A DNA stretch of 59,996 bases, filler included, from 4 parts of 4 records of this genome joined end to end with filler, not necessarily neighbours in it; one strand, 5' to 3'. Positions 18,007 through 53,258 are shown, counted from the first letter of the whole stretch. Notes: generated by a model from the letters alone, not told the origin. Numbers and translations: made by a program.

Positions 18007-18106
18007 NNNNNNNNNNNNNNNNNNNNNNNNNNNNNNNNNNNNNNNNNNNNTTAATTAATTAANNNNNNNNNNNNNNNNNNNNNNNNNNNNNNNNNNNNNN
18101 NNNNNN
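18007..18106. other. Artificial contig spacer
   Basis: 44 N + TTAATTAATTAA (stops in all frames) + 44 N. Confidence 0.98.
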
Positions 18107-18433: not shown

Positions 18434-18877
18434 GTGTCAATACTAAATACATTAAATATTAATTGGTTATGTATACACACCTGGTTACAAGCATCTAAGA
18501 ATACTTTATGGTGTTTATTAGGGTGTTGTATTGGTGATTTTGGAACAATAGGTTTTTTTCAATTTATGGAAATATCATGGCCAGTATCCTTAATAATGAC
18601 ACTAGCTATAGTAAACGGTATTATCACATCCATTATCCTTGAAACAATAATCTTATCAAAACAAATGTTATTTAAGTTAGCTTTTAAGACAGCAATAGGG
18701 ATGTCATTAGTATCGATGGTATCAATGGAAGCCGCTATGAATCTTACAGACTTTATATTGACGGGTGGAGCGATTTTAACTTGGTGGGTAATCCCTTTTA
18801 TGCTTTTTGCAGGATTTATTACTCCATTACCTTACAATTATTGGCGTTTAAAAGCGCTTGGAAAGGCTTGTCACTAA
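18434..18877 (+). CDS. DUF4396-family membrane protein
   Basis: TLWCLLGCCIGD, SMVSMEAAMN, PYNYW..GKACH. Confidence 0.8.
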   Translation: MSILNTLNINWLCIHTWLQASKNTLWCLLGCCIGDFGTIGFFQFMEISWPVSLIMTLAIVNGIITSIILETIILSKQMLFKLAFKTAIGMSLVSMVSMEAAMNLTDFILTGGAILTWWVIPFMLFAGFITPLPYNYWRLKALGKACH

Positions 18878-19666
18878 ATGAATTTATTTTATTACAAATT
18901 TATTCTTTCACAAACTTTTGCGCTTTTAATATCCTTATTTATTGGCTTACTGATTTCTTTAACATATTTTGGAAAAGTGTATGGAGATACAAAAATATTT
19001 AGTACACAAGAAACGTCAAAAATTAAAGAACTTATATTAGAAACTTTGTTAGAAAAACCTGAAGTTTTAATTGAAATGAGCCAGCTACTTAAGAAAAAAG
19101 AAGCACAAGCATCTCAACAAAAAGTTAAGTTAGTTATAAAAGAAAATAAAAATTTATTATTTAATAATGACAATGCGCCTGTTATTGGTAACAAAGATGG
19201 TAATGTAACTACAATTGAGTTTTTTGATTATAACTGTGTTTATTGTAAACGTGCCATAGACCCATTGAAAAAAATATTGGCAAAAGATAACAATATCCGT
19301 TTTGTTTTAAGAGAATGGCCAGTTTTGAATGAAGGGTCTATGTATTCGGCCAAGGCTGCCCTTGCTTCTCGTAAACAAGGACTATATGAGACTTTTCACT
19401 TCGCCTTAATGAATACCAAACGTGTGACAAAAAATTCAACACTGACGGTAGCAAGGAAGGTTGGATTAGATTTAGATAAATTAAAAAAAGATATGAAATC
19501 ACCAAAAATTGAACTTCATATAAATAACTCAAGGAAACTTGCGAGTGCTCTTGGTTTCTCTGGAACGCCCTCTTTTCTTATTGGTGAACAAACAGTTCCT
19601 GGTTTAATACCTTTAAAAGAGCTTGAGCGTTTAGTTAAAAAAGCAAGGTTAAATAAAAATGAGTAA
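18878..19666 (+). CDS. DsbA/Com1-like thioredoxin-fold protein (ScsC-like)
   Basis: EFFDYNCVYC and GTP motifs. Confidence 0.88.
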   Translation: MNLFYYKFILSQTFALLISLFIGLLISLTYFGKVYGDTKIFSTQETSKIKELILETLLEKPEVLIEMSQLLKKKEAQASQQKVKLVIKENKNLLFNNDNAPVIGNKDGNVTTIEFFDYNCVYCKRAIDPLKKILAKDNNIRFVLREWPVLNEGSMYSAKAALASRKQGLYETFHFALMNTKRVTKNSTLTVARKVGLDLDKLKKDMKSPKIELHINNSRKLASALGFSGTPSFLIGEQTVPGLIPLKELERLVKKARLNKNE

Positions 19667-20132
19667 AGTATATTATGCATCTTTGTTTAGTGCTGCTTTA
19701 GTTATTGGAACTTTAGTCTATTATTTAAATTCTCCTATCCAACCTGCTAATGCTTCAGTTTCGTTAAAACCTGAAGATAAATCTGTCATTTTATTAGGTA
19801 AGAATATCTATGCTCAAAACTGTGCATCATGCCATGGAGTCAACTTAGAAGGACAGAAGAACTGGATGTCAAGATTACCAAACGGAATGATGCCTGCCCC
19901 ACCGCATGATGTAACCGGTCATACTTGGCATCATTCTGATAATTACTTGTTTCTTATAACAAAGTATGGTGTTGAAGAAATTTTAGGTGAAAAATATCCA
20001 AATAATATGCCTGCATATAAAGATATCTTGACTGATGATGAAATAATTTCTGCTTTATCCTATATAAAGAGTACATGGCCGTCAAAAACAAAAAAAATCC
20101 ATGATGAAATTAATTTAAGATCTAATAAGTAA
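19659..20132 (+). CDS. Monoheme cytochrome c
   Basis: CASCHG, APPHDVTGHTWHH, MPAY. Confidence 0.9.
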   Translation: MSKVYYASLFSAALVIGTLVYYLNSPIQPANASVSLKPEDKSVILLGKNIYAQNCASCHGVNLEGQKNWMSRLPNGMMPAPPHDVTGHTWHHSDNYLFLITKYGVEEILGEKYPNNMPAYKDILTDDEIISALSYIKSTWPSKTKKIHDEINLRSNK

Positions 20133-20152
20133 TAAAGAATAAGGAATAAGGT

Positions 20153-20548
20153 ATGAATATAAAAATTATATTAATAGTGTTAATTTTCTTTCTAAAGAAC
20201 ACAGTTGCATTTGCTCATTCTCCTTTAAAAGTAGTTTCACCCAAGAATAATGAAATATTAAGTCAAGCACCTGAACAGATCACAATGATTTTTAAATCTG
20301 AAGCTAAACTTATCAAAATAACTTTAGAAAAACAAAAAAATACTAAGCAAGATTCAATGATTAGTAATTTCTTCTCTAAAGGTAATGGTGAAAATATTAA
20401 AATTAAAGAGAATGCCCTTATGCAAATATCCAAAAAGCACTCTATAGATTTGCCTAAACTTACTTCTGGGAAATATCTTTTTCATTGGCGTGCTATGAGT
20501 GAAGATGGACACGTTATAAAAGGAAATTTAAAATTTAATATAAAATGA
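20153..20548 (+). CDS. copC: Periplasmic copper-binding protein CopC
   Basis: AFAH mature N-terminal His; WRAMSEDGHV. Confidence 0.88.
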   Translation: MNIKIILIVLIFFLKNTVAFAHSPLKVVSPKNNEILSQAPEQITMIFKSEAKLIKITLEKQKNTKQDSMISNFFSKGNGENIKIKENALMQISKKHSIDLPKLTSGKYLFHWRAMSEDGHVIKGNLKFNIK

Positions 20549-20558
20549 GATATTTTTA

Positions 20559-21428
20559 ATGGAAATCTGGATATTATTAAATCCAATAATTAAGTTTTTT
20601 TTGTACATAGCAGTATTTGGTTCTGTCGGAACATTAGTATTTATTTCTCATTTTCATAAGCTTTTAAAGCCTGCACAATTAGACGATTGCTCTAAAATAA
20701 AAAATAAATTCACAAAAGTTGGTGTCTTAGTTTCTTTTATATCTATTTTATCTATACCTGGAAACATGTCAGGTGATCTTATGGGAGTTATAGATATTAA
20801 TATGATCAATTTATCATTTGATACTCTGGCTTTAAAATCTTCACTTCTTTTATTTACAGGCTTTATATTAATATATTATTTACCTACAAAATTTAAAAAG
20901 ATTTTTTTTTGGGGAAACACTACAGCTGTTTTTATAATTCTTTTTGCTTTTATTGCTATCGGCCATTCAACAAAAGGTGGAATTTTAACCCAAGCGTTAA
21001 TTATAATACACTTGATAGGTTTGTCTTACTGGATAGGGGCATTATTACCCTTGAAAGGAATGTGTAATATTCCCGACTTTAAGGAACTTAAAATCGTTGG
21101 TCATATGTTTGGCAAATATGCTATTTATTATATTTTGGCTTTATTAACTGCAGGTTTAATATTTTCATACATTTTAATCGGTGATATTTCTACATTATTT
21201 AATACTATGTATGGAAATGTTTTAATAATTAAATTTCTTTTTGCTATTTTGTTAATTTCACTTGGAGCCTTGAACAAGTTATTTTTAGTACCAAAATTAG
21301 ACATAAATAATGGAATAAGCATTAGAAAACTAAAAAGATCTATAAATGTAGAAATTATTATTGTTTTAATAATCTTTTTTTTAACCAGTTTACTTACAAC
21401 TTCCTTAACATTACCCATGAGTGATTAA
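20559..21428 (+). CDS. copD: Copper resistance inner-membrane protein CopD
   Basis: IGHS, HLIGLSYWIG, YGNVLIIK, GALNK. Confidence 0.85.
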   Translation: MEIWILLNPIIKFFLYIAVFGSVGTLVFISHFHKLLKPAQLDDCSKIKNKFTKVGVLVSFISILSIPGNMSGDLMGVIDINMINLSFDTLALKSSLLLFTGFILIYYLPTKFKKIFFWGNTTAVFIILFAFIAIGHSTKGGILTQALIIIHLIGLSYWIGALLPLKGMCNIPDFKELKIVGHMFGKYAIYYILALLTAGLIFSYILIGDISTLFNTMYGNVLIIKFLFAILLISLGALNKLFLVPKLDINNGISIRKLKRSINVEIIIVLIIFFLTSLLTTSLTLPMSD

Positions 21429-21429
21429 T

Positions 21430-22812
21430 ATGACTTCAAGAAGACAATTTCTTAAAATTTTACCGTATAGTTTTTTGTTAACTGCGTGTAAGCCTTTGGT
21501 ATTTGATACTAAAAAAGTAGTAAAATATGAGCTTGCAGCAAATAAATCGACATTCAATTTTAATGAAAAATTTAAAGCAAATTTGTTTTTGTACAATAAT
21601 GCGAACCCTGGACCATTATTAAAGGCAAATGTTGGAGATATTTTAAAAATTGATTTTAAAAATAACTTAGATCAACCTACAAGCATTCATTGGCACGGCA
21701 TTAAAAATATCAATAAAATGGATGGTGTTCCTTATTTAACACAAGACCCTGTTCAACCTGGTGAGACGTTTTCATATGAATTTCCAGTAAACCAATCGGG
21801 CACATATTGGTATCATGCACATTTTGAATCTTGGAAACAAGTCGCAAAGGGTTTGTATGGTCCGTTGGTTGTAAATGATAAAACTGATGATCTTATTGAA
21901 GATGATATTGTTATTTTAGCAGATGACTGGAGGTTAAACAAAAATTATCAAATTGATGAAAAATCTTTTGGTTCATTAATGGACTGGTCTCATGCAGGAA
22001 GAATAGGTAACTGGCTAACAATAAATGGAAAAAAATCACCACAATATTCAATTAAAGAAAATAGTATAGCAAGATTAAGGTTCATAAATGCTTCTAATGC
22101 TCGTATTTTAAAATTTGGATCAAGCTTAAAAAACAATAATATAATTACTATTGATGGGGTTGCAGTAAAACCAATGTTAGTAGAAGATTTTACTTTAGCA
22201 CCAGGACAAAGAATAGATTTACTTATAAACACTGTTGATCTTTTGAAAGTTGATTTCTTTGAAATTAGTCATACGAAACAGCTGAAAGCTTTTACTCTTA
22301 ACGTAACCAAGGCAGATAATAAAACGAAAAACATTACTAACATTAATTTTAAATCTAATTTGATTTTACCAAAACTAGATAATGCAAAAACTATTAACAT
22401 CCGAATGCAGGGTGGAGCAATGGGCAATCTCTCAAAAGCTAATCTTGATGGAGTTCAAAAAGATTTTCGTACCCTTGCAACTGAAGATAAAAAATTATGG
22501 GCCTTTAATAAAGAAATTGGAAGTTATGAATATTTACTTTCCACAGTTAAGCTAAACCAAGTTGTAATTTTAGATGTTTGGAATGATACTCGATGGCCTC
22601 ATAGTATGCATTTACACGGTAATCACTTTTTTGTGAAATCCAAAGAGTTCAAAGAAAATAATGATTATATTTTAAGAGATACTTATTTAATGCAGGCAGG
22701 TGAAAAAGCAAAGCTTATTTTTGTAGCTGATAATCCAGGCAAGTGGCTTTTTCATTGTCATATGCTAGAACATGCGGCCTCAGGCATGGTAAGCTATATT
22801 GATGTAGTATAA
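21430..22812 (+). CDS. Multicopper oxidase, Tat-exported probable lipoprotein
   Basis: HWHG, WYHAH, HSMHLHG, HCHMLEH copper motifs; MTSRRQFLK plus LTAC lipobox (ATG 21430 preferred over GTG 21421). Confidence 0.93.
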   Translation: MTSRRQFLKILPYSFLLTACKPLVFDTKKVVKYELAANKSTFNFNEKFKANLFLYNNANPGPLLKANVGDILKIDFKNNLDQPTSIHWHGIKNINKMDGVPYLTQDPVQPGETFSYEFPVNQSGTYWYHAHFESWKQVAKGLYGPLVVNDKTDDLIEDDIVILADDWRLNKNYQIDEKSFGSLMDWSHAGRIGNWLTINGKKSPQYSIKENSIARLRFINASNARILKFGSSLKNNNIITIDGVAVKPMLVEDFTLAPGQRIDLLINTVDLLKVDFFEISHTKQLKAFTLNVTKADNKTKNITNINFKSNLILPKLDNAKTINIRMQGGAMGNLSKANLDGVQKDFRTLATEDKKLWAFNKEIGSYEYLLSTVKLNQVVILDVWNDTRWPHSMHLHGNHFFVKSKEFKENNDYILRDTYLMQAGEKAKLIFVADNPGKWLFHCHMLEHAASGMVSYIDVV

Positions 22813-23979: not shown

Positions 23980-24870
23980 ATGACTTCGCTTAACAAAACA
24001 CAACATGTATTCAAGGGAGTTTTATTTTTTATAACTGCAATTTTTTTTATATCTGTTGTAGACACTATATGTAAATTATTTACAAAAGAGCTTCATGCAA
24101 TACAGATTGTATGGGGTTATTTTTTGGGTATTAACCTTACACTATGGATCTTCTTTTTTTTGAAGGGCAAAAAACTCTCAAATTTAAAGACAACTGATAG
24201 ACCAATCCTTCAAATTCTACGCCCTGCTTTTTTAGTTTGTTCTATATCTAGTCTTTTTGTTGGTTTAACATATTTACCATTAGCGGAAGCTACAGCAATT
24301 GGGTTTGTGGCACCTCTGTTTATAACAGTCCTTTCTGTTCCTATTCTGAAAGAAAAAGTGGGTATTCATCGCTGGGCTGCAGTAGTAGTAGGATTAATAG
24401 GAGTTTTAATTATTATACGCCCTGGTAGTGATTTTTGGCATTTTATATCAATTATGCCTTTGGTAGGAGCCTTATTCTTTGCACTTTTTCAAATTTTGAC
24501 AAGATTACTATCTGGAACTGAAAAGACACATACAACTTTATTTTATACTGGCCTTGGAGGATTGTTTTGGTCTAGCTTAATTGTACCATTCGTTTGGGTT
24601 ATTCCCTCTCAGATTCATGTTTTAGTATTTTTGGCTACAGGTACTTTAGGTGCCCTGGCGCATTTGTGTATGATAAATGCTTTTGATTTTGCTGAAGCGT
24701 CCTTGTTGGCTCCTTATAATTACACTAAGTTATTATGGGTAGCTGTTTTTGGCTATTTGGTTTTTGGTGATATTCCAAGCTTTGAAATGTGGATAGGATC
24801 TGGAATTATAGCTTCAGCGGGTCTTTATGTTCTTTATAGAGAAAGAAAACATAGCATAGTGAAAGCATAA
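23980..24870 (+). CDS. DMT/EamA family transporter
   Basis: 10-TM pattern, LPLAEATAI..APLF, LKEKVG, IIRPG, LAPYNY. Confidence 0.9.
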   Translation: MTSLNKTQHVFKGVLFFITAIFFISVVDTICKLFTKELHAIQIVWGYFLGINLTLWIFFFLKGKKLSNLKTTDRPILQILRPAFLVCSISSLFVGLTYLPLAEATAIGFVAPLFITVLSVPILKEKVGIHRWAAVVVGLIGVLIIIRPGSDFWHFISIMPLVGALFFALFQILTRLLSGTEKTHTTLFYTGLGGLFWSSLIVPFVWVIPSQIHVLVFLATGTLGALAHLCMINAFDFAEASLLAPYNYTKLLWVAVFGYLVFGDIPSFEMWIGSGIIASAGLYVLYRERKHSIVKA

Positions 24871-24936: not shown

Positions 24937-24976
24937 GGAGAGCACATGTGTTTATAGTGCTCTCCTTTAGATTTTT
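24937..24976 (+). terminator. Intrinsic terminator hairpin between the convergent DMT gene and the riboswitch-controlled peptide
   Basis: 9-bp stem GGAGAGCAC/GTGCTCTCC, 11-nt loop, followed by TTTAGATTTTT. Confidence 0.65.
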
Positions 24977-24983
24977 GTGTATA

Positions 24984-25100
24984 TTATTTACTTGATTTGC
25001 AAGTACACGACTTTGGTGTGCGATAATTCAAAATTTTATGAATTAATGCACGTTTACGTGCAAGCACAAACTTATTCCATTGATATGGTCTGTAAGTCAT
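24984..25100 (-). CDS. 38-aa basic small protein MTYRPYQWNKFVLARKRALIHKILNYRTPKSCTCKSSK downstream of glutamine riboswitches (not in ORF track)
   Basis: Strong RBS AGAGGAGGG just upstream; lies directly 3' of two aptamers; followed by a hairpin. Confidence 0.8.
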   Translation of the reverse strand: MTYRPYQWNKFVLARKRALIHKILNYRTPKSCTCKSSK

Positions 25101-25128
25101 TTTGTCACCCTCCTCTATTAAAGTTAGG

Positions 25129-25177
25129 TGCGTTCCTTCGGCATCATTACCTACTTCCGTCTCTTACGAGATGAACG
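25129..25177 (-). ncRNA. Glutamine-I (glnA motif) riboswitch aptamer 2
   Basis: CGUUC-A-UCUC[GUAA]GAGA-C-GGAAGUA-GGUA[AUGA]UGCC-GAAG-GAACG-CA: P1, GNRA-capped P2, E-loop AGUA/GAA and P3. Confidence 0.88.
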
Positions 25178-25184
25178 ATGATAA

Positions 25185-25235
25185 TGCGTTCCTTCAGCAT
25201 TGTTATATGCTTACTTCCGTCCTAAAGGATGAACG
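25185..25235 (-). ncRNA. Glutamine-I (glnA motif) riboswitch aptamer 1
   Basis: CGUUC-A-UCC[UUUA]GGA-C-GGAAGUA-AGCAU[AUAACA]AUGCU-GAAG-GAACG-CA; same core as aptamer 2 with different but paired stems. Confidence 0.88.
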
Positions 25236-25242
25236 TCCAATT

Positions 25243-25270
25243 ATAATAGCATTTAATTAACTTTAAGCAA
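25243..25270 (-). promoter_or_regulatory. Putative sigma70 promoter for the riboswitch leader
   Basis: TTGCTT-N16-TATTAT with extended -10 TG; predicted start about 1-2 nt before aptamer 1. Confidence 0.45.
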
Positions 25271-25443: not shown

Positions 25444-26403
25444 ATGACAACCAATGTTGCTATAATTGGGTTAGGTATTATGGGTACTCGTATGTTAACA
25501 CATATGAGATTACATGAAGAATTCAATCCAGATTATTTGTGGGACCCAAACCCAATTGCTTGTGAAAATGCTATCAAACAAGATAGTAAATCTCTTATTA
25601 TGAAAAGTGCTGATGACGCAATAGAAAAGGCTGACTTAGTTTATTTAGCATGTCCACCTACCGTAAGGGAGGCATATGCCTTGAAAGTGGTTGAAATGGG
25701 CAAAGCTCTTTTACTTGAAAAACCATTTGGAATAAATACTGAAGATAGTAAAAATTTTATTAAAAAGCTTCAAAATTATGATGTTCCTATTGCGGTAAAT
25801 TTTACTCAAGCTGCGGGTGCTCCTTTGGCTGACTTGTTGGCAAGCAAAAATAAAGGCGAAATGGGAGAAATGCTAGGTGTTGATATCATAGTTACATATC
25901 CTTCTTGGCCTCGCGAGTGGCAAAAACAAGCTGATTGGCTTCGGTTTAAAAAAGAAGGAGGTATGACAAGAGAAGTAATATCTCATTTTATTTTTTTTAC
26001 CGAACGTGTTTTAGGACCTCTTAAAGTAAAGTGGGCCCATACTTCTTATCCCGCGGACCCTTCATCATGTGAAACTGATGTTCTTGCGAGATTAGAAACT
26101 GAAGATGGTTTGCCGGTCAATATATTAGCAAGTGTTGGTGGCATTCAACCAGACCGACAGGAATTTACAGTTAAAGGATCTAAACAAAGTAGAAAAATTG
26201 CAGAATTTCATAAAGACACAATATCTTATGGCGAAGATTTCATTCCTCTGAGGGAAGAATCTGAAGACCCTAGAGCAGTAAGCTTAAAGTCACAGCTTGA
26301 TGATTTAGTTCTTAAAATAAATCATAAACCCAATAGTTTGGCGACAATTGATGAGGCGTTTAGGGTACAAAAATTAGTAGAGGAAATATTGTCAAAAACT
26401 TAA
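25444..26403 (+). CDS. Gfo/Idh/MocA family oxidoreductase
   Basis: IIGLGIMG, LLEKP, GGMTREVISH; ATG 25444 preferred. Confidence 0.88.
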   Translation: MTTNVAIIGLGIMGTRMLTHMRLHEEFNPDYLWDPNPIACENAIKQDSKSLIMKSADDAIEKADLVYLACPPTVREAYALKVVEMGKALLLEKPFGINTEDSKNFIKKLQNYDVPIAVNFTQAAGAPLADLLASKNKGEMGEMLGVDIIVTYPSWPREWQKQADWLRFKKEGGMTREVISHFIFFTERVLGPLKVKWAHTSYPADPSSCETDVLARLETEDGLPVNILASVGGIQPDRQEFTVKGSKQSRKIAEFHKDTISYGEDFIPLREESEDPRAVSLKSQLDDLVLKINHKPNSLATIDEAFRVQKLVEEILSKT

Positions 26404-26823: not shown

Positions 26824-26918
26824 TGGCGGAGGGAGGGTCTGTCACAATAACCTTTAAGTGTCTGATTTTCATGCGCTTTATGAAATAACTTCAAATGTAC
26901 CCCACATAATACCCCACA
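26824..26918 (-). mobile_element. att-site remnant: tRNA-Ser-like 3' end plus arm-type direct repeats
   Basis: Minus strand CCCTCCCTCCGCCA (26824-26837) with no rest of a tRNA; TACCCCACA x2 at 12-bp period (26898-26918). Confidence 0.6.
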
Positions 26919-34138: not shown

Positions 34139-34238
34139 NNNNNNNNNNNNNNNNNNNNNNNNNNNNNNNNNNNNNNNNNNNNTTAATTAATTAANNNNNN
34201 NNNNNNNNNNNNNNNNNNNNNNNNNNNNNNNNNNNNNN
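34139..34238. other. Artificial contig spacer
   Basis: Same 100-nt N/TTAATTAATTAA linker. Confidence 0.98.
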
Positions 34239-35531
34239 AGCAGTTAACTTTTCAACTCCATATTTTTTGGATAATTGCTCGTGAATCTTCTCATAATACT
34301 GATTATCCTTAACCTTAACGTTAGTTTCACGATGACAATTTATACACCAACCCATTGTTAAAGGAGAGTACTGATACATTATTTCCATCTCTTCAACAGG
34401 CCCGTGACAAGTTTGACATTCAATACCTCCAACAGAAACATGTTGAGCGTGATTGAAATATGAAAAGTCAGGAAGGTTGTGAATTCTTACCCACTTAACA
34501 GCTTGAGTTTCACCAGTATATTCTTGAGACTCATCATCCCATCCAACTGCTTTGTATAGTTTCTGAATTTCAGCATCATAAAACTCCTTAGAGTACTCTT
34601 CAGTGGTTTCTCCATTATATTCGTATATAGATTTGTGACAATTCATACAAACATTAAGTGATGGTATTCCAGAGTGCTTACTAACTCGTGCAGAAGAATG
34701 GCAATAATTACAGTCTATTTCATTATCTCCTGAATGAATTTTATGCGAGTAATGTATAGGTTGTACAGGTTCGTAACCCTGATTAACTCCGATTTGCATT
34801 AGAAATCCATAAACAAAATAAGCACTAACTAAAAGCATTATGATAGCACTACATAACATTAAAAACTGGTTATCAACGAAAGCTTTCCAAAGAGGTTTTC
34901 TTGTAGATTTCTTTTTAGTTGGTAACTGAATATTGTTTTGTGCAGCAAAACTTCTAAGTGTTTTGTTAACTACAAATAACCCTAATGATAGAAGCAAAAA
35001 CATAAATGCAAAAACTCCTAATATTATTTCGTTAGAGATGCCATTAGAAGTATTTTCACTAGTTGGAGAAACTTCAACAGCTTTAACTACAGGGGCAGGT
35101 TTTTCTTGGGCGGTATATGCTAAAATATTATTTAAATCATCATCTGATAACTGAGGATAAGCTGTCATAGCAGCTCCATTATATTCAGCATAAATTTTGT
35201 TAGCGTAATCATCACCAGATTTAATTAGAGATGAGCTATTTCTAATCCATTTGTAGAGCCATTCTCTGTCTAGACCTTCGTCATTGTAAAGTCTATCTTC
35301 AACTCCCCTTAATGCTGGGCCAGTCATTTTTTTATCAAGCTTGTGACATGCAGCACAATTAGAATTAAATAAAGCTTTTCCTTTTACAGGGTCAGCGTCT
35401 TGTCCAAGAGAAGAAATTGTAAAAATAAAAGCAAGCGGCAGAAGTAGTTTCCTGAGAGAGATACAAGAGAAAAATTTTGAATTTTTAATTAAGTAAAATT
35501 TAGAATCTACTTTATTATATTTTTTATTCAT
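34239..35531 (-). CDS. actA: Alternative complex III multiheme cytochrome c subunit ActA (monoheme + pentaheme; 3' truncated)
   Basis: CAACH, CNYCH, CMNCH, CQTCH, CINCH; PVQPIHYSHKIH; Flavobacteria-type fusion. Confidence 0.85.
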
Positions 35532-35707
35532 TTAAAAAGAAAAAATCATTTATAAAAATCAAGCACAAAAATAATACATATCAACGATTATTTAGCCCTC
35601 ACATATGGTAATTTTAATTCAAAATTATAATTTATAAACATTCTAAATAATATATTTAGAGCTTATTAAAAATAAGTATACATTTGTAATTCAAAAGTAA
35701 AGAAAAA

Positions 35708-36115
35708 TTGAATAAGATTATTACCTACTTAAGTATATTTTTTTTGTGCGCTAACTCGTTTTCACAAAGCCAATTAGCTCAAGTAAATCAAGACAGCAGA
35801 ATTGATAGTTTGTTAAAGCTCAAAAAGGAAATAAATAAAAATACATTTGATTTAAAAATTCAAATATTTAGTGGAGAGAGAGACAAGGCTTTAGAATTAA
35901 TTGCAAATCATGATAAAGATGATTATTCTAATACTAACATAGAACTGGTTTATGAGACTCCCAATTATAAAGTTTGGATAGGTGATTTTTATTCACAATT
36001 AGAAGCTGACAAAAAACTTTTAATGATTAAAAAAAAATATCCCGAAGCGTTTATCTTTAGACCAAAACCAAAGATCGAAAATACTAACGCTGATCTGGTT
36101 GAAATAAAACAATAA
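35708..36115 (+). CDS. SPOR-domain protein
   Basis: KIQIFSG, YETPNYKVWIGDF; Bacteroidetes promoter TACATTTG at 35679-35686. Confidence 0.8.
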   Translation: MNKIITYLSIFFLCANSFSQSQLAQVNQDSRIDSLLKLKKEINKNTFDLKIQIFSGERDKALELIANHDKDDYSNTNIELVYETPNYKVWIGDFYSQLEADKKLLMIKKKYPEAFIFRPKPKIENTNADLVEIKQ

Positions 36116-36119
36116 ATAA

Positions 36120-38804
36120 CTATTTAAGTTTTTTCTTAATTTCTACTTGTTGGAAACCTTCTATTATATCACCCTCTTTTAAATCGTTGTAATTTTTAAT
36201 TTGCATTCCACAATCATAACCTTTTGCAACTTCTTTAACATCATCTTTAAACCTTTTAAGGGAAGATAATTCACCAGAGTAGATTACAACTCCGTCACGA
36301 ATTAATCTAACACCACAATTTCTAAATATTTTTCCAGTTGTAACCATACAACCTGCAATAGTACCGATTTTTGAAATTTTAAAAGTCTCTCTAACTTCTG
36401 AAGTCCCAGTTATCTCTTCTTTAAAGTCTGGAGACAGCATTCCTTCCATAGCATCTTTCAAATCATTAATAGCATCATATATTATTGAATACATTCTGAT
36501 GTCTATTTCTTCTTTATCTGCTATTTGTCTTGCATTGCCTGTTGGCCTAACATTAAACCCAATTATAATTGCATCAGAAGCAGATGCTAATAAAACATCG
36601 CTTTCAGTTATTGCTCCAACTGCTTTATGTATAATATTTACTTGAATTTCTTCAGTTGATAATTTCTGGAAGGAATCAGTTAATGCTTCAACAGATCCAT
36701 CAACATCTCCTTTGAGAATAATATTTAATTCTTTAAAGTCTCCTAAAGCAATTCTTCTTCCAATTTCATCAAGTGTAATATGCCTTTGTGTTCTAACAGA
36801 TTGCTCTCTTTGCAATTGTGTTCTTTTAACAGCAATTTGCTTAGCCTCTCTTTCATCTGAAAAAACAATAAACTTGTCACCAGCTTGGGGAGCTCCGTCT
36901 AAACCAAGAATTGATATTGGAGACGAAGGACCGGCAGTTTCAACAATATTACCTCTTTCATCATGCATTGCTTTAACTTTACCACTATTTTTACCTGCTA
37001 AAACATAGTCACCAATCTTTAATGTTCCTGTTTGAACTAGGATTGTGGAAACATAACCTCTTCCTTTGTCTAAAAAGGCTTCAACTACTGTTCCAGATGA
37101 AGCTCTATTAGGATTTGCTTTAAGCTCTAAAATCTCTGCTTCTAATAATACTTTTTCCAACAAGTCATCTACGCCATCTCCCTTTAATGCAGAAATATCA
37201 TGAGACTGTATTTTACCTCCCCAATCTTCAACTAATAAATTCATTTGGGAAAGACCTTCTTTAATTTTATCAGGGTTTGCCGTTGGTCTATCAATTTTAT
37301 TAATTGCAAAGACTATCGGAACTCCTGCTGCTTGAGCATGAGAAATAGCCTCTTTTGTTTGAGGCATAATATCATCATCTGCAGCAATTACAATAATTGC
37401 CAAATCAGTTACTTGTGCTCCTCTTGCTCTCATTGCAGTAAATGCCTCATGCCCAGGAGTGTCTAAAAAAGTTATTTTTTGTCCACTTGAAAGTTCTACA
37501 CTATATGCTCCAATATGCTGCGTAATGCCGCCAGATTCACCAGCAATAACATTTTCTTTTCTAATGTAATCCAATAGCGAAGTTTTACCATGATCGACAT
37601 GACCCATAACTGTAACAATTGGGGCTCTTGGCTTTAAATCTTCTTCTGAATCTAATATTTCTTCAATTGAATCTTCAATATCTGCAGTTACAAACTCAAC
37701 GCTGTAACCAAATTCTTCAGCCACAATGCTTAATGTTTCTGCATCTAAACGCTGATTCATTGTAACCATCATTCCTAAGGTCATGCATGCTGATATTATT
37801 TCAGTAACAGAAACATCCATCATCGTGGCAACCTCACTAGCAGTAACAAATTCTGTTACCTTCAGCAATTTGCTTTCTGCCTCTACATTTGCAAGTTCAT
37901 CTTCTGTTTTTTGACGGTGCTGATCTCTTTTCTCTTTTCTATATTTTGCGCCCTTACCTTTTGAACTCTTACCTTGAAGTTTTTCAAGTGTTTCTCTAAC
38001 TTGTTTTTGAACTTCCTCTGCACTAGGCTCCTCTTTTGTAGAGGTGGTGTTCTTTGATTTAAAATTAGATTTTTGAGCTGTTCTTTGAACTGGTTTTTGA
38101 GTAGTTTTTGCATTATCGTTAGGCTTACTAATCCTCCTTCTCTTTCTTTTTGAATTAGACTGAGAAGGGCTTTCTTTTTTCTTTTCAGCTTTAAATTTTG
38201 TTAAATCAATAGTTTCTCCAGTTGACTTAAGTCCAGATAACTTTTTGTATTTGGTAGTGACTGTATCAGATTCAGCTTTGCTATCTTCACTGTCAACTTT
38301 GTCATCTTTTTTAACAGCTCCTTCTGTAGTAGCTTTTTTAGGATCTATTTCAATTTCTTTAGTATTCTTTTCATCGGAAGCAGCTTTTTCAACTACAATA
38401 GCAGAAGGTTCCACAGATTCTTTAGTTTTAAGCGATTTAGGTTTTTCTAAATTAGGCTGAAGGTCAATTTTTCCAACTTTTTTTACTTCTTTTAGTTTTG
38501 ATGCAGCTGTTATAACTTTCGCATCTTCTTCTTTATTCTTTAATAAAAGTTCAATTTCAGCCTCTCTTTTAATTCTTAGAGCTTCTTTTTCTTTGGATTT
38601 AGCCTCACCTAATTCTTTGGAAGCAACTTTTTTATTTGCATCAGTTTGGAATTCATTAGATAATAGTTCATAAATCTCTAAAGAAATTTTGGTAGTTGGA
38701 CGTTTTTCAATTTCAATGCTTTTGGATTCAAGAAAATCTATAGCACGGTCTATTGAAATATTCAACTCCCTTAACACTTTATTTAATCTAATATTTGGAG
38801 CCAT
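36120..38804 (-). CDS. infB: Translation initiation factor IF-2
   Basis: [17 protein letters not shown]. Confidence 0.98.
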
Positions 38805-38825
38805 AAATTGGTTTAAATTATATTA

Positions 38826-40058
38826 TCAATCTTCAAATTCTTCCTTAAGAATTCTAACTACCTCAACAATAGTTTCTTCTTCAAGATCAGTTCTTTTTAC
38901 TAAGTCAACAACTTCCTGTTCCAGAACACTTTTTGCGGTATCTAAACCAGCTTTAGCAAGTTCTTCAATAACCCATCCGTCTATTTCATCACTAAATTCT
39001 CTTAATTCTACGTCTTCTTCAACTCCTTCTCTAAATACGTCTATTTCATATCCAGTAATTTGACCTGCCAATCTAATATTATGACCGCCACGTCCAATTG
39101 CTTTGCTAACTTCTTCAGGTTTTAAAATTACTTCAGCTCTTTTATTTTCTTCATCAATTTTGATAGAGGTAATTCTAGCTGGACTTAATGAGCGAGTTAT
39201 AAAAAGCTGAAGATTATTAGTGTAATTAATAACATCAATATTCTCATTGCCTAACTCTCTAACTATCCCATGAATTCTAGATCCCTTCATTCCCACGCAT
39301 GCACCAACAGGATCTATTCTATCATCATATGAATCTACTGCTACTTTGGCTTTTTCTCCAGGGATTCTAACAACTTTCTTAACATTTATAAGACCATCAA
39401 ATACCTCTGGAATTTCCTGCTCAAATAATTTTTCTAAAAACAATGGAGAAGTCCTAGACATAATTATCGATGGTTTTGAACCTTTTAACTCAACACTTTC
39501 AATAACCCCTCTAATATTATCTCCCTTTCTAAAAAAATCAGATGGAATCTGTTTTTCTTTTGGCATTATAATTTCATTTCCTTCATCATCTAGCAATATA
39601 ATAGCTCTATGTCTTATATGGTGAACTTCAGCGGTGTAAATCTCACCAACTAAATCCTTAAATTGCTTATAAATGTTAGAATTATCATGTTCATGAATTT
39701 TGGAAACTAAATTTTGTCTTAGCGCCAAAATAGCTCTTCTACCAAGGTCAATTAATTTAACTTCTTCTGAAACATCTTCACCCACCTCAAAATCAGGCTC
39801 TATTTGTCTGGCTTCGCTAAGTGATATTTCGCCATTTTCATCTTCAATTTCACCATCAGCTACAACTACTCTGTTTCTCCAAATCTCTAAATCTCCTTTG
39901 TCAGGGTTAATTATAATATCAAAATTATCATCATCTCCAAACTTTCTTTTTAAGGCACTTCTAAAAACATCTTCTAAAATAGTCATTAGAGTTACTCTGT
40001 CAATTAATTTGTCGTCTTTAAATTCAGAAAAAGACTCTATTAAGGCTATATTTTCCAT
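38826..40058 (-). CDS. nusA: Transcription termination factor NusA
   Basis: S1/KH domains, IDPVGACVGMKGSRI, AIGRGGHN. Confidence 0.98.
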   Translation of the reverse strand: MENIALIESFSEFKDDKLIDRVTLMTILEDVFRSALKRKFGDDDNFDIIINPDKGDLEIWRNRVVVADGEIEDENGEISLSEARQIEPDFEVGEDVSEEVKLIDLGRRAILALRQNLVSKIHEHDNSNIYKQFKDLVGEIYTAEVHHIRHRAIILLDDEGNEIIMPKEKQIPSDFFRKGDNIRGVIESVELKGSKPSIIMSRTSPLFLEKLFEQEIPEVFDGLINVKKVVRIPGEKAKVAVDSYDDRIDPVGACVGMKGSRIHGIVRELGNENIDVINYTNNLQLFITRSLSPARITSIKIDEENKRAEVILKPEEVSKAIGRGGHNIRLAGQITGYEIDVFREGVEEDVELREFSDEIDGWVIEELAKAGLDTAKSVLEQEVVDLVKRTDLEEETIVEVVRILKEEFED

Positions 40059-40067
40059 AATATAATA

Positions 40068-40529
40068 TTAAAATTTAATTTTAACTTTTGCTTCGTTTAT
40101 ATCTTTGTATAATAAATTAATTTCTTTTTCAACAGTGATTTTACCCTTGCCAATTTTTTTAGGCTCACGTTGTTTCCATTTCAGTTTAATTTCGTCACTT
40201 GTAGCTTCAACTAATTCAGCCTCATAGTGATTATCATTAGTTCTAACCTGTAGAACTCTTCCAATGTTTTTTACAAATTGTCTAGAGATAGTTAATGCTG
40301 CTGAAGCTCCTGCTGAACTAACTTCTAGAGAAAAATCATATTCATCTCTGTCAATATTGTGTTCAATGGCGCGACTAACAAATATACAATCTTCGACCAA
40401 AACTCCTTTATCTCCATCTATAACAATTCTAATCTTATTACCGGACAAAATTTCGAAGTCTGTTAAAAAAAGATCCTCCCTTTCCAACAAACTTTTTTTA
40501 AGTAATTCTTCGACAATCGATTTAAACAT
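40068..40529 (-). CDS. rimP: Ribosome maturation factor RimP
   Basis: IDGDKGV, FSLEVSSAG; rimP-nusA-infB order. Confidence 0.95.
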   Translation of the reverse strand: MFKSIVEELLKKSLLEREDLFLTDFEILSGNKIRIVIDGDKGVLVEDCIFVSRAIEHNIDRDEYDFSLEVSSAGASAALTISRQFVKNIGRVLQVRTNDNHYEAELVEATSDEIKLKWKQREPKKIGKGKITVEKEINLLYKDINEAKVKIKF

Positions 40530-40537
40530 AATTCTAT

Positions 40538-40561
40538 AAAAAGAGGGGACTTAGTCCCCTC
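40538..40561 (-). promoter_or_regulatory. rimP-leader terminator-like hairpin
   Basis: GAGGGGAC-TAA-GTCCCCTC-TTTTT just before the rimP ATG; TATATTTG promoter at 40588-40595. Confidence 0.7.
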
Positions 40562-40653
40562 ATAATCATTAATAATAATTAAAGTTGCAAATATACAAAT
40601 TTAATTTTTATTCTTAATTACATCCTTCAAGAGAATATAATTAAAGTTTTCAG

Positions 40654-40726
40654 TTGGCCCACTAGGTTTCGAACCTAGACTCTTCTGCACCAAAAACAGA
40701 CGTGTTACCAGTTACACCATAGGCCA
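40654..40726 (-). tRNA. tRNA-Gln(TTG), CCA not encoded
   Basis: Full cloverleaf: TGGCCTA/TGGGCCA acceptor, TCTGT-TTTTGGT-GCAGA anticodon arm, CTAGG-TTCGAAA-CCTAG T arm. Confidence 0.95.
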
Positions 40727-40859
40727 ATTGCTGAGCGTGCAAATTTATAATAATCTTTTATTTTAACAAGATTTTTTAAAAAATAAATTTTGATTAAATA
40801 ATTGTTAAAAAAGATAGAGTATAAATTTTATAGTTAAATTTGGCTTTCAAATTATATTT

Positions 40860-43800
40860 ATGAGTGATATTGATTTTAAAAAATGGAATACTATTTTAGG
40901 ATGGCTGTGTTTTTTAATAGCGGCTATTGTATATGCTTTAACTGCAGAACCAACGGTTAGTTTTTGGGATACCGGTGAATACATCTTATCTGCTTCTAAA
41001 CTTAATGTTGGGCATCCACCTGGCGCTCCTCTTTTTCAAATGCTTGGTGCTTTTTTCTCGATATTTGCGATTGAGCCATCCCAAATTGGTTATATAATGA
41101 ACCTGATGAGTGGTGTATCAAGTGCTTTCACAATATTATTTATGTTTTGGTCAATTAGTCTATTGTTGACAAAAGTGTCTATAAAAATGAATATTGAAAA
41201 AAATAATAATTTTATAATTTTAATAAGCTCTTTAGTTGCTAGTTTGTCTTTTATGTTTACTGATACCTTTTGGTTTAATGCAGTAGAAACAGAAGTATAT
41301 GCAATGGCAACACTAATAATGTCAATATTATTTTATTTGGGCCTTAAATGGGAACAAGAGATGCATCTGCCAAGAGGAAATAGATGGCTTGTACTTATAA
41401 GCTTTGTGGTAGGTCTTTCTTTCGGGGTTCATTTTATGGGACTTTTGACTATCCCAGCAATTGGATTGATATATTTTTTCAAAAATTATAAACCAATTAC
41501 ACTTAAGAAGTTTATTTTGGCCAATTTAGCTGTAGTTGGAATTCTAATGTTTGTCTTTAAACTTTTAGCTCCTAACATCCTTAGATATTTTAGTGTCTTG
41601 GAAGTGTTTTTTGTTAATTCAATTGGGCTGCCTTTCAATTCAGGAACTATTATAGCAGGATTATTATTAATTTCATTTTTCTATTATTTATTAAATTACA
41701 CAGTAAAAAATAATCTTAAAACCTTCAACACTGTCACTATTTGTGTTTTATTTATTTTAATAGGTTTTTCTTCTTGGATTATGCTTCCAGTAAGAGCAAA
41801 TTCAGATGTAGTAATTAATGAAAATGACCCCTCTGATGCCAGACAATTATTAGCTTACTATAATCTTGAACAATATCCTAAAACACATTTATTTTATGGG
41901 CCACTATTTACTGATCAGTACTCTGGTTTAGATGAAGAAAAACCCTATAAAGATGACAAGCCAAAATATGAAAAAGATTTAACTCAAAATAAATATGTAA
42001 TAGTTAATAATTATAAAAATGCTAGTCAAAATTTTAACAGTGAACAAGCTTCCATACTGCCAAGAATGTGGAGTTCTGAACATGCTTCAAACTATCTTAG
42101 GTATACAGGATTTTTAGATTATAATGTTAAAAGAAAATATAAAAATCAACCCGAGGCAAAAGAATTAATTGAATTGGTAAATGATTTTAAAAAAAGAACC
42201 TACCAAGGAGATATAGATTATGATGAGCATCATAAATTTTTAAAGACATATGGGACATACCTTGATATTGAAAAACCGTCCATAGTTAGTAATGTAAAAT
42301 ATCTTTTTCAATATCAACTTGGCTATATGTATTGGAGGTATTTTATGTGGAATTTTAGTGGTCGCCAGGACGATATTCAAGGAAGAATGGATATGCATGG
42401 AAACTGGATTAGTGGAATTGATTTTGTTGATGAAATTCATTTGGGTTTAAGTCAAGAAAATTTACCAAGTGATGTTGCTGAAAATAAATCAAGGAACAAG
42501 TATTATATGATCCCTTTTATAATTGGCTTGATTGGTCTCTATTTTTTATATAATAAAGACAAAGAAATGTTTTGGATTTTGTTGGTGTTTTTTGTTTTTA
42601 CTGGTATCGCTATTCAGGTATATACCAATGTTAGACCTTTTGAACCAAGGGAAAGAGATTACTCAGTTGTTGGTTCATTTTATGTTTACTGTATTTGGAT
42701 TGGTTTTGGAATATTTAGTCTAATTAATTCATTAGAAAAAGTTACTAATTCTAAATATATTAAACTTTTAACTATCCCTATTTTTCTCTTAATATTACCC
42801 ATAAATCTTGCTAGTAGCAACTGGGATGATCATGATCGTTCCGGAAGATATACTGCACGTTCAATGGCGCTAAAATATTTAGAATCTTGTGAACCAAATT
42901 CAATTTTATTTACTATTGGTGATAATGATACTTTCCCATTATGGTATTTGCAAGAAATTGAAGGAATTAGAACTGATGTTCGTGTTTTGAATACTAGCCT
43001 TTTTAACACAGATTGGTACATTGATCAAATGAAAAGGAAGGCGTATGATAGTGACCCTATACCGTCATCTTTATCTCATGGAAAGTATCGATATGGAACA
43101 AGAGATTATATAATAAAAGAAGTTACTACATTGGATACTATTGACATTAAGACATTTATAAAATTTGTAACACAAGATGATGAGAAGTATAAGTATAAAA
43201 ACTTACTGCAAAAACAAGGTTACGAAACCAATTATTTGAGAGAGCAAGATTTAAATGCGAATTATCTACCTACTGAGAGTATTCGAATTCCTGTCAACAA
43301 AGAATCTGTACTTAATAATAAAATTGTTGATAATAGCTTATCAGATGAAATTGTAGATGAAATAATAATTAAAATTAAAGGTCAAGCGCTTTACAAAAAT
43401 AGATTAATGATGCTTGATATTATTGCCGAAAACAACTGGGAAAGACCAATTTACTTTACTGGTGGTTCATTTGGTGATGATGATTATTTATGGATGAAAG
43501 ACTATTTACAGTTAGAAGGCTTGTGTTATAAGTTAGTTCCTATTAAAACACCAATCGATCAATCGAATCCCTATGAAATGGGTAGAGTAAACACAGAAAA
43601 AATGTATTCAATGGTTAAAGATTGGGATTGGGGAACTAAAGGAAATGTGGGTGTGTATTTTGATGTTGAATCAAGAAAAAATAGCATTACCTATAGAAGT
43701 AATATTTCTAGATTAGTTAATCAGCTTATTATAGAAAATAAAAATGACAAAGCGGAAGAAATATCTGACATAGTAATTGAAAATATGCCTGTGAATATAT

Positions 43801-44096
43801 TTGGGTATTACACCCTTCTTGAATCTTACATAGATTCCTATTATAGACTTGAAAATAAAGAAAAGGCTAGAAATTTATTTTCAGAAATTGCGAATAAGTA
43901 CAAGGAAAATTTATTTTATTTTAGTAGTCTTAAAGATGAAAATAAAAACAGATATGCTGAAGAAATTTACACAGACATAGAAAGATATAGATCTTTAGTA
44001 GGTGTAATTATTTCTTACGAGGAAGGTGAGTTTTTAGAAAAACAAATGGATGATTTTAATTCTTACTTAGAATTTTTTATTGGCAAAGAAGAATAA
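40860..44096 (+). CDS. DUF2723 (TMEM260-like) GT-C membrane glycosyltransferase
   Basis: SFWDTGEYI, HPPGAP, ETEVY, RERDY, GDNDTFPLWY. Confidence 0.88.
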   Translation: MSDIDFKKWNTILGWLCFLIAAIVYALTAEPTVSFWDTGEYILSASKLNVGHPPGAPLFQMLGAFFSIFAIEPSQIGYIMNLMSGVSSAFTILFMFWSISLLLTKVSIKMNIEKNNNFIILISSLVASLSFMFTDTFWFNAVETEVYAMATLIMSILFYLGLKWEQEMHLPRGNRWLVLISFVVGLSFGVHFMGLLTIPAIGLIYFFKNYKPITLKKFILANLAVVGILMFVFKLLAPNILRYFSVLEVFFVNSIGLPFNSGTIIAGLLLISFFYYLLNYTVKNNLKTFNTVTICVLFILIGFSSWIMLPVRANSDVVINENDPSDARQLLAYYNLEQYPKTHLFYGPLFTDQYSGLDEEKPYKDDKPKYEKDLTQNKYVIVNNYKNASQNFNSEQASILPRMWSSEHASNYLRYTGFLDYNVKRKYKNQPEAKELIELVNDFKKRTYQGDIDYDEHHKFLKTYGTYLDIEKPSIVSNVKYLFQYQLGYMYWRYFMWNFSGRQDDIQGRMDMHGNWISGIDFVDEIHLGLSQENLPSDVAENKSRNKYYMIPFIIGLIGLYFLYNKDKEMFWILLVFFVFTGIAIQVYTNVRPFEPRERDYSVVGSFYVYCIWIGFGIFSLINSLEKVTNSKYIKLLTIPIFLLILPINLASSNWDDHDRSGRYTARSMALKYLESCEPNSILFTIGDNDTFPLWYLQEIEGIRTDVRVLNTSLFNTDWYIDQMKRKAYDSDPIPSSLSHGKYRYGTRDYIIKEVTTLDTIDIKTFIKFVTQDDEKYKYKNLLQKQGYETNYLREQDLNANYLPTESIRIPVNKESVLNNKIVDNSLSDEIVDEIIIKIKGQALYKNRLMMLDIIAENNWERPIYFTGGSFGDDDYLWMKDYLQLEGLCYKLVPIKTPIDQSNPYEMGRVNTEKMYSMVKDWDWGTKGNVGVYFDVESRKNSITYRSNISRLVNQLIIENKNDKAEEISDIVIENMPVNIFGYYTLLESYIDSYYRLENKEKARNLFSEIANKYKENLFYFSSLKDENKNRYAEEIYTDIERYRSLVGVIISYEEGEFLEKQMDDFNSYLEFFIGKEE

Positions 44097-44097
44097 A

Positions 44098-44394
44098 TTA
44101 TATGTATTCTTGAATACGGCCGATTAAAGTGTTCGCATCTTCAACACCACTTTGTCTCCACTTCATTTCACCATTTTTATATATAATAAAAGTGGGAAGC
44201 CCTTTAATTCTAAGAGCCTCAGCAAGGTCATTATTTTTATCTACATCAATTTTAATAACTTTAGCTTTATCTCCAATAGCAGCAGCAACATCCTTTATTA
44301 CAGGATGCATCTCGTTTGAGGTTTCATCCCATTGTGTGAAAAATTCGAGAAGAACAGGAATTTCTACATCAATTAATTCTCCAAATTTTGACAT
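44098..44394 (-). CDS. Thioredoxin-family protein lacking CxxC
   Basis: PVLLEFFTQW, KIDVDKN, GLPT, WRQSG; no cysteines. Confidence 0.8.
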   Translation of the reverse strand: MSKFGELIDVEIPVLLEFFTQWDETSNEMHPVIKDVAAAIGDKAKVIKIDVDKNNDLAEALRIKGLPTFIIYKNGEMKWRQSGVEDANTLIGRIQEYI

Positions 44395-44447
44395 AACTTA
44401 AAGTTTTAAATCAATTAAGGTTATACAAATATAACATTTCCACAGGA

Positions 44448-45656: not shown

Positions 45657-45781
45657 AATTGAATGCAAATATATACTTATAATTGTTGATGATTAATTAA
45701 AATTTATTTAATAAAATGTTAAATATTCTTAATTGCTTTACTTATTTTAGACAACTAACAAATTTTAAAAAATTAATCTTA

Positions 45782-47425: not shown

Positions 47426-47428
47426 GTA

Positions 47429-48403: not shown

Positions 48404-48426
48404 TTTTTTATAATCGTTATAATTTA

Positions 48427-51231: not shown

Positions 51232-51310
51232 ATTATTTATATATAAATCTTTAAACAATATCTCAAAAAAATAATTTTATAGTTCTATTTGCTATTCAAA
51301 TATATAATTG

Positions 51311-51318
51311 TAGATTTG
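51311..51318 (+). promoter_or_regulatory. Bacteroidetes -7 promoter element TAnnTTTG for rplM-rpsI-rpsB
   Basis: TAGATTTG; the same motif occurs before actA, SPOR, rimP, tRNA-Gln, DUF2723 and thioredoxin. Confidence 0.7.
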
Positions 51319-51364
51319 CACACTCTTTTCGAGAGAAATTAATTATTAATGAAAATATTATAAA

Positions 51365-52209: not shown

Positions 52210-52326
52210 AAAATTAATAACCAGTTTTTGTTATCTATGAATTTTATTCAAGATTTAGTTTAGCATCTAAATGATCAAGTAAAAAAACTTGGCATTGCTA
52301 TTCAACAGAAAGTAAACTATCACAAA

Positions 52327-53158: not shown

Positions 53159-53258
53159 NNNNNNNNNNNNNNNNNNNNNNNNNNNNNNNNNNNNNNNNNN
53201 NNTTAATTAATTAANNNNNNNNNNNNNNNNNNNNNNNNNNNNNNNNNNNNNNNNNNNN
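53159..53258. other. Artificial contig spacer
   Basis: Same 100-nt linker. Confidence 0.98.

Follow-up and report, generated by a model that had tools for sequence, protein, structure and literature searches.

To our knowledge, glutamine riboswitches have a single experimentally understood cargo, the cyanobacterial protein IF17 of about 149 amino acids. In the parts of Klahn et al. (2018, PMC6212724) that treat its gene, gifB of Synechocystis, the aptamer was described as required for expression, which rises with the nitrogen supply, and the bases that follow helix P1 were proposed to pair with the ribosome-binding site (RBS). According to crystal-structure work summarized there, bound glutamine engages the C after P1 in a long-range pair, and the short helix attached to P1 melts, which was proposed to free the gifB RBS (PMC6212724). 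The locus described here resembles the gifB leader in its aptamer class (RF01739), in the output of a small basic protein, in post-P1 bases that can pair with the RBS, and, as proposed below, in a logic by which glutamine sensing would feed a post-translational effector (for gifB, see the same parts of PMC6212724). However, the protein is unrelated to IF17 by the tests run and far smaller (38 amino acids), the bacterial copies carry two tandem aptamers, and the hosts are Alphaproteobacteria with GlnE and PII, as well as phages.

Other described systems also lie close to this locus. The picocyanobacterial DUF4278 or 'IF17-like' peptides, such as Yfr6, are likewise encoded by very short ORFs that form the sole cargo of a glutamine riboswitch (as described in the relevant parts of PMC6212724 and PMC2864571), and a Y-R start shared with the present peptide can be seen by eye; unlike the RF01739 aptamer found here, theirs is the glutamine-II Downstream-peptide RNA (RF01704). 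In marine metagenomes, the same RF01739 aptamer, often in tandem, precedes amtB, gltB, or glnA (Weinberg et al., 2010, PMC2864571, in its part on the glnA RNA). The cargo of the amtB and gltB riboswitches is an assimilation gene behind a platform of the form CGGATC..., whereas here it is a microprotein. A single RF01739 aptamer was also described in T4-like phages of streamlined marine heterotrophs, namely Melnitz and the pelagimyophages (PMC9004378, in the part on this riboswitch). Against this background, the protein family and its hosts are new, while the kind is known, a small protein gated by a glutamine riboswitch.

The DNA analyzed, referred to as the window, is 59,996 nucleotides long and consists of four contigs joined by 100-nt linkers of the form N44-TTAATTAATTAA-N44 at 18007-18106, 34139-34238, and 53159-53258, so that any gene neighbourhood across the linker points is artificial. 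The riboswitch-peptide unit lies on the second of these, contig B (18107-34138), and its features are listed in Table 1.

Table 1. Features of the riboswitch-peptide unit and their positions in the window.
Feature	Position	Strand	Basis and details
Candidate promoter	25243..25270	minus	TTGCTT (25270-25265), 16-nt spacer, TGC-TATTAT (25251-25243); candidate by eye only
Glutamine aptamer 1 (type 1, glnA RNA, RF01739)	25183..25237	minus	56.3 bits, gathering score 35, model 1-53
Glutamine aptamer 2 (RF01739)	25127..25179	minus	61.3 bits, gathering score 35, model 1-53 of 53
Shine-Dalgarno region AGAGGAGGGTG	25106..25116	minus	GGTG (25109-25106) pairs with CACC
CDS, 38-aa basic microprotein	24984..25100	minus	stop codon included; translation, phmmer, coding signature, AlphaFold2
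Hairpin after stop codon	24937..24965	minus	9-bp stem, 11-nt loop, GGAGAGCAC-N11-GTGCTCTCC

Translation of the ORF (25100..24984) gave MTYRPYQWNKFVLARKRALIHKILNYRTPKSCTCKSSK, a product of 38 codons with six lysines and four arginines, no aspartate or glutamate, and a C32-x-C34 motif, which reproduced exactly the ten K/R, the lack of D/E, and the CxC tail given by an earlier sequence-only reading of this DNA. The strong RBS named in that reading was found as AGAGGAGGG at 25116-25108, where 8 nt separate GGAGG from the ATG. Its claim that the gene has a candidate promoter of its own stood in part: the candidate in Table 1, in which the TGC directly precedes the -10 element, was recognized by eye and ends about 5 nt ahead of the first Rfam aptamer match (25237), but a consensus scan found no promoter upstream of aptamer 1. 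Elements resembling a -10 box lie at an equal distance from the aptamer in other bacterial loci of the family, and the promoter, as a candidate, is the weakest part of the unit. The downstream hairpin fared similarly, as the 9-bp stem is present but was not flagged by the terminator scan, and no T-run follows it on the minus strand. Since the T-run sits on the opposite strand, this hairpin may mainly terminate the convergent gene for an EamA transporter (23980-24870); at other family loci, hairpins also occur 3' of the stop codon, several of them with T-runs. The neighbour on the other side, a gene for a GFO/IDH/MocA oxidoreductase (25444-26403), is divergent, so the riboswitch-peptide unit stands alone.

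The surrounding 6 kb of AT-rich DNA contain 44 ORFs of at least 25 amino acids. A 38-codon ORF by itself is no better than chance, and the case for a gene therefore rests on sequence comparison. What raises this ORF above chance is its conservation, its coding signature, and its constant link to the riboswitch, and judged from these the gene is genuine and monocistronic, with a strongly basic predicted product of 38 residues. The description of a self-contained, riboswitch-controlled small-protein gene was thus borne out, with conservation, purifying selection, and tandem RF01739 aptamers upstream.

A phmmer search of 1.84 billion representative proteins returned eight hits at E <= 1e-3, six of which were peptides of 31-56 amino acids with 59-75% identity. 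One of the hit peptides starts with the in-frame translation of the aptamer, which places the same RNA upstream of it. The two long hits (226 and 290 amino acids) are internally repetitive and look spurious, and no convincing fused or longer form of the family was found among the phmmer hits. The 90% cluster of the peptide also includes an unrelated-looking member of 436 amino acids, which is probably a clustering artefact, and a search of the ESM Atlas gave no usable hit.

Further loci were located by pattern scans derived from the peptide alignment and then confirmed by tblastn, a procedure that inflates the apparent conservation of the protein. Confirmation was obtained for seven of 14 pattern matches in species-representative genomes, 160 of 190 stretches in metagenome contigs, and 47 of 69 stretches in IMG/VR viral contigs. 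The best 80 of the 160 confirmed metagenome loci were carried forward, and duplicates were removed prior to counting because some contigs appear among both the metagenome and the viral loci. The seven reference loci belong to Ca. Levibacter sp. Uisw_134_01, four Alphaproteobacteria MAGs, Ca. Marisalimonas marina, and one SAR116 MAG, in line with the marine heterotrophs that had been predicted as carriers; the Levibacter copy encodes a peptide identical to the one in the window. Beyond what had been predicted, most of the family copies found here are on phage-like contigs. On these comparisons, the protein family is new and widespread, and it is common to SAR116-type bacteria and T4-like phages of the ocean.

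Among the loci, 61 distinct complete peptides of 31-39 amino acids were identified. Five residues (M1, T2, W8, R15, and R27) are invariant and ten more (Y3, R4, P5, K9, F11, A14, R17, A18, H21, and L24) are at least 90% conserved, giving a core of MTYRP[YF][QS]WK.F..AR.RA.VH[KR]ILNYR. All 61 have a net charge of +7 to +12 and a pI of 10.2-12.0. The window peptide shares 44-97% identity with the 60 other distinct members and shows the pattern by which the family is defined, M-T-[YF]-x-x-[YF]-x-W ... A-R ... H-[KR]-[IL]-L-x-x-R in 31-39 amino acids directly behind RF01739. The tail past residue 27 is variable. A C-x-C motif occurs in 28 of the 61 distinct peptides, and being confined to this subgroup it is no defining trait of the family.

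The peptide was earlier suggested to be undescribed, and the databases agree: none of the 61 members matched PHROGs or NCBIfam, and Pfam gave nothing relevant. A profile search of PDB chain sequences returned nothing better than E=1, where the presence of an IF7 chain in that set is unconfirmed. Two family members used as tblastn queries and one leader searched by blastn matched none of 50,697 phage records. The full-text literature searched contained no description of the peptide; the supplements of Klahn et al. (2018; Table S2 and Fig. S3), which lie outside that search, may list cargos without a Pfam domain, possibly including this family.

A resemblance to the DUF4278 peptides through a TYRG-like start had also been proposed, and this was not supported. 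The window peptide gave no DUF4278 match in Pfam at E <= 10, and at that threshold none of the 61 members matched PF14105. An hhalign comparison with a riboswitch-linked, DUF4278-like family gave a probability of 1.2%, with only YRPYQW aligned against YRGNSW, the comparison family being a narrow one of 12 sequences at 72-96% identity built from a 57-aa peptide and its relatives (E=0.0012 to PF14105). By the tests run, the family is not of the DUF4278 or IF17-like type. The 57-aa peptide itself is encoded at 1500-1833 of G044:C20 (L013), from the order of genome G001, where it consists of YRG repeats, stands behind an RF01739 match that an insert extends to 100 nt, and matches DUF4278 weakly (E 0.0012); this locus suggests a DUF4278-like riboswitch cargo outside the cyanobacteria.

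The coding signature was evaluated on 64 distinct gene heads of 81 nt. Entropy at the three codon positions was 0.41, 0.41, and 0.76, and dN/dS across these homologs, which the sequence-only reading had named as a check, was 0.25 in frame versus 1.15 and 1.12 in the shifted frames. As the scan pattern fixed residues 1-9, the test was redone on codons 10-27 alone, where pN/pS was 0.37 in frame versus 1.07 and 2.15 out of frame, in a set still skewed to protein similarity by the tblastn confirmation. One viral relative contains an in-frame insertion of two codons, and a decayed copy in a bacterial genome (L174, G147:C11, about 1557-1700) is interrupted by a TAA at codon 7 and preceded by a weak aptamer (37.6 bits); both fit a coding gene. 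From the alignment of 61 rows, AlphaFold2 predicted a single basic helix over residues 5-27 with a loose tail (mean pLDDT 77, up to 93 over residues 11-20).

Sequencing runs gave a hint that the unit is transcribed. Of the 19 runs (11 studies) listed, 13 that are recorded as RNA contained one third to half of the words sampled from a 501-nt stretch around the unit. Short contigs from RNA libraries of three studies matched the window with zero differences at 24981-25221 (241 nt), 25035-25213 (179 nt), and 24955-25145 (191 nt); such contigs give no strand, ends, or level, and RNA libraries can contain DNA. Uncovered parts of the stretch and small word shares in other runs were left out of the evidence.

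The expected co-occurrence with glnA aptamers was complete in a regular-expression scan, which found an aptamer before the peptide wherever 100 nt or more of upstream sequence was available. All seven reference-genome loci have tandem RF01739 aptamers directly upstream, while by Rfam each of the 20 viral loci sampled has one aptamer that exceeds the gathering score. A looser expression applied to non-redundant loci with 260 nt upstream gave the same division (tandem in 7/7 genomes, single in 26/26 viral loci), with 37 tandem and 27 single cases among the metagenome loci. The complete Levibacter chromosome has no second RF01739 locus. On a structure drawn by hand over the alignment of related leaders, 99.6% of 832 cells pair in helices P1-P3, and double changes were found at five of six pairs in P2 and P3, as expected for the aptamer class.

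The spacing and the expression platform are also conserved. Between the end of the aptamer core and the ATG lie 26-32 nt in all but one of 53 distinct leaders, and this outlier (84 nt) arose because the expression missed a variant second aptamer. In the window, the 3' tail CACC of aptamer 2 (25130-25127) forms the anti-Shine-Dalgarno strand. Every one of the 52 distinct leaders aligned allows the four bases after P1 (CACC or CACU) to pair with the RBS at GGUG (or AGUG); one of these pairs is C-G in 38 leaders, U-G in 11, and U-A in three. This complete pairing is weak proof, since the Shine-Dalgarno sequence is conserved for its own reasons and a double change is seen in three leaders only. 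The anatomy equals that of the gifB leader, which is the ground for reading the element as an ON switch, and by this analogy glutamine probably turns translation on. In the proposed mechanism, the CACC 3' of the P1 of aptamer 2 would pair with GGUG and sequester the Shine-Dalgarno sequence when no ligand is present. With glutamine bound, the first base of CACC would be drawn into the long-range pair of the aptamer, the short helix would melt, and the ribosome could load, while two aptamers in series would make the response sharper.

The first 8.7 kb of contig B (18107-26837) are 98% identical to the Ca. Levibacter chromosome and carry the riboswitch unit together with a copper-handling cluster, an MBL-fold gene, and the genes for the EamA transporter and the oxidoreductase. 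The copper-handling cluster (18434-22812) encodes DUF4396, ScsC/DsbA-like, cytochrome c, CopC, CopD, and multicopper oxidase proteins. The similarity breaks off precisely at the 3' end of a tRNA-Ser(GCT) gene (Levibacter L015 2186-2277), of which the window keeps the last 14 nt at 26824-26837 (CCCTCCCTCCGCCA). Beyond this remnant lie a gene for a RecQ-like helicase with a DUF559 domain and one for a Sel1-repeat protein, and the helicase segment looks like an element inserted at the tRNA with the peptide gene on its flank. As to the island on which the unit had been placed, the unit does adjoin a hot spot of integration at tRNA-Ser, on a contig of 16 kb, but its own stretch is the part shared with the Levibacter chromosome at 98% identity, so an island location of the gene itself is unsupported.

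Contig C (34239-53158), which includes the core genes for IF-2 and PolA, is 100% identical to genome G001. Its 1078-aa TMEM260-like protein shares 48-54% identity with the family of G001 and had no match in Levibacter or two alphaproteobacterial MAGs. Conversely, GlnA of the Levibacter type was found in none of 41 G001 relatives at E <= 1e-50. With contig C being G001-like and contig B Levibacter-like, either the assembly mixes lineages or a contig moved between them, and on sequence similarity the riboswitch-peptide unit was assigned to a Levibacter-like alphaproteobacterium. Among the G001 relatives, the best peptide match had an E-value of 0.018 and RF01739 was present in one of 61 genomes; these searches are uninformative on the distribution of the peptide, since the lineage of G001 differs from that of the carrier contig.

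Each of the five carrier genomes examined has one type-I glnA with glnB upstream, the adenylyltransferase GlnE, and two or three PII genes. The carriers thus retain the ordinary brake on glutamine synthetase (GS), and the absence of GlnE as a rationale for an additional brake was ruled out. In a sample of 151 genomes from the Levibacter order, RF01739 was found in 15, at a single locus each. Its cargo was the peptide in nine of these (eight intact and one pseudogene), amtB in five, and gltB in one. The ammonium transporter was identified by Pfam (1.5e-99 and 7.6e-101) for the two proteins scanned and by sequence likeness for the other three; these amtB loci (L161-L165 in G093, G077, G085, G081, and G074) have tandem RF01739 aptamers with a different platform. 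The remaining locus (L173, G179) has a single aptamer before the N-terminus of a class-II glutamine amidotransferase, most likely the glutamate synthase large subunit gltB.

None of the 15 genomes has both the peptide module and a riboswitch-controlled amtB or gltB. The pattern suggests that the peptide occupies a regulatory slot held by assimilation genes in sister genomes, and it is suggestive only, as the sampled genomes are related. The nitrogen context assumed by the sequence-only reading thereby gained its strongest support, which is indirect because it comes from the riboswitch standing before amtB or gltB in other genomes of the same order.

The viral loci are flanked by genes for DUF3310/phrog_480, an endolysin-type cell-wall hydrolase, glutaredoxin, and ThyX, and one viral flank shares 71-77% identity with genes of Pelagibacter phage HTVC008M and OM43 phage Melnitz. 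The motif TATAAATA, which we take to be the T4 late promoter, was found no more than 45 nt ahead of the aptamer in 21 of 26 non-redundant viral, 21 of 64 metagenome, and one of seven genome loci, against a background of 0.235 per kb; the viral copies mostly begin 21 nt before the aptamer. T4-like marine phages thus have this module as well, with a single aptamer and, in most cases, a motif resembling a late promoter; in phages it would tie a function late in infection to the glutamine of the host. Of the 20 viral loci examined with Rfam, nine (L110, L118, L122, L125, L127, L130, L133, L141, and L148) also contain a permuted alpha-type tmRNA gene, 0.1-2.6 kb downstream of the unit, and in L122 and L125 this gene begins 5 nt past the peptide stop codon.

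A related arrangement was observed in Melnitz itself (MZ577097.1 44898-47946; L150 1501-1670), where one RF01739 aptamer is followed by a CACU...GAGUG platform, a Shine-Dalgarno sequence, and an unannotated basic ORF of 32 amino acids. In the database record, the annotated tmRNA overlaps the aptamer and an antisense hypothetical CDS covers the ORF, and the gene order relative to the tmRNA is reversed compared with the viral family loci. The likeness of the 32-aa peptide to the family is by eye only, as hhalign gave no significant similarity. Buchholz et al. (2022, PMC9004378) assigned the riboswitch to the tmRNA and lysis timing, with the peptide unmentioned in the part concerned, and stated there that the OM43 host has no glnA. 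Since a Shine-Dalgarno sequence and a small ORF follow the aptamer, this assignment merits re-examination, and the riboswitch may control the peptide instead of the tmRNA.

Taking these lines together, we propose that the product would be an effector of nitrogen status, made only at high glutamine. A role of the peptide in nitrogen assimilation is the part of this proposal that we moderately favour. The full reading, in which a glutamine-gated microprotein exerts negative feedback on nitrogen assimilation by binding a protein, with type-I GS as the top candidate, is given an even chance. GS is the single most likely target because of the analogy to IF17 and because a conserved target would explain a core common to bacteria and phages; the peptide would then be a functional analogue of the cyanobacterial IF7 and IF17 and not their relative. 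As a specific claim the GS target is nevertheless doubtful. The tests run revealed no sequence or profile link to IF7, IF17, DUF4278, or a solved structure; most copies recovered are on phage-like contigs and follow a late-promoter-like motif, where a GS brake has no obvious benefit; and the carriers have GlnE, while the Melnitz host is stated to lack glnA (PMC9004378, part on the host). A bolder version, which we regard as rather unlikely, is that the peptide would be an independent inactivating factor of GS (or of ammonium uptake), the first outside the cyanobacteria, which T4-like phages of SAR116- and SAR11-type hosts captured to stop host nitrogen assimilation late, at high glutamine. If true, it would be a brake that is encoded by a virus, gated by a metabolite, and directed at a central enzyme of nitrogen cycling in the ocean.

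The GlnE of the carriers, which already serves GS, speaks for the idea that the peptide acts on another protein of nitrogen assimilation or signalling, either by plugging AmtB, an ammonium channel that GlnK is known to plug, or by acting on GOGAT, PII, or NtrB. The direct control of amtB (five genomes) or gltB (one) by the riboswitch in the same order agrees with such a target, as does the separation of these cargos from the peptide, as though the peptide achieved the same by another route; mutual exclusion in 15 related genomes is weak evidence, however, and we judge this explanation unlikely. The charge and pI of the 61 peptides and the single predicted helix with invariant Trp and Arg would also suit a basic helix of the arginine-rich-motif type that binds nucleic acid or the ribosome, late in phage infection and at plentiful nitrogen in bacteria, and that modulates the translation or transcription of specific RNAs or serves as a DNA counter-ion. 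The occurrence of TATAAATA upstream of 21 of 26 viral loci, the nearby tmRNA in nine of 20, and the neighbouring genes for nucleotide metabolism and lysis speak for this possibility, but an aromatic N-terminus that hardly varies (MTYRP[YF].W) suggests a specific partner, protein or RNA, more than a generic counter-ion, no conserved RNA partner came to light, and the late-promoter reading of the motif is an assumption of ours. This explanation, too, appears unlikely. Only a very small chance is left to the view that the RNA is the conserved element and the ORF is non-functional or matters only by being translated, as a leader or regulatory ORF. The high conservation of the leader and first codons in the DNA and the tmRNA gene 5 nt past the stop codon in two viral loci would fit it, yet the amino acids are conserved with synonymous changes in excess, the convergent next gene in bacteria leaves nothing downstream to control, hairpins follow the stop codon, and the order relative to the tmRNA is reversed in Melnitz.

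In this unit, the same sensor that serves IF17 drives an unrelated and unannotated microprotein that is common in ocean metagenomes and shared by abundant heterotrophs and their phages. As cultured carriers exist, including a complete Ca. Levibacter chromosome with an identical copy, the use of the glutamine signal by heterotrophs and phages becomes directly testable.

A further observation concerns the C-termini of the family. Although the tails are otherwise variable, 53 of the 61 distinct peptides end in A or S, most often as AS (20) or AA (17), and this conserved terminus might be a C-terminal degradation signal.
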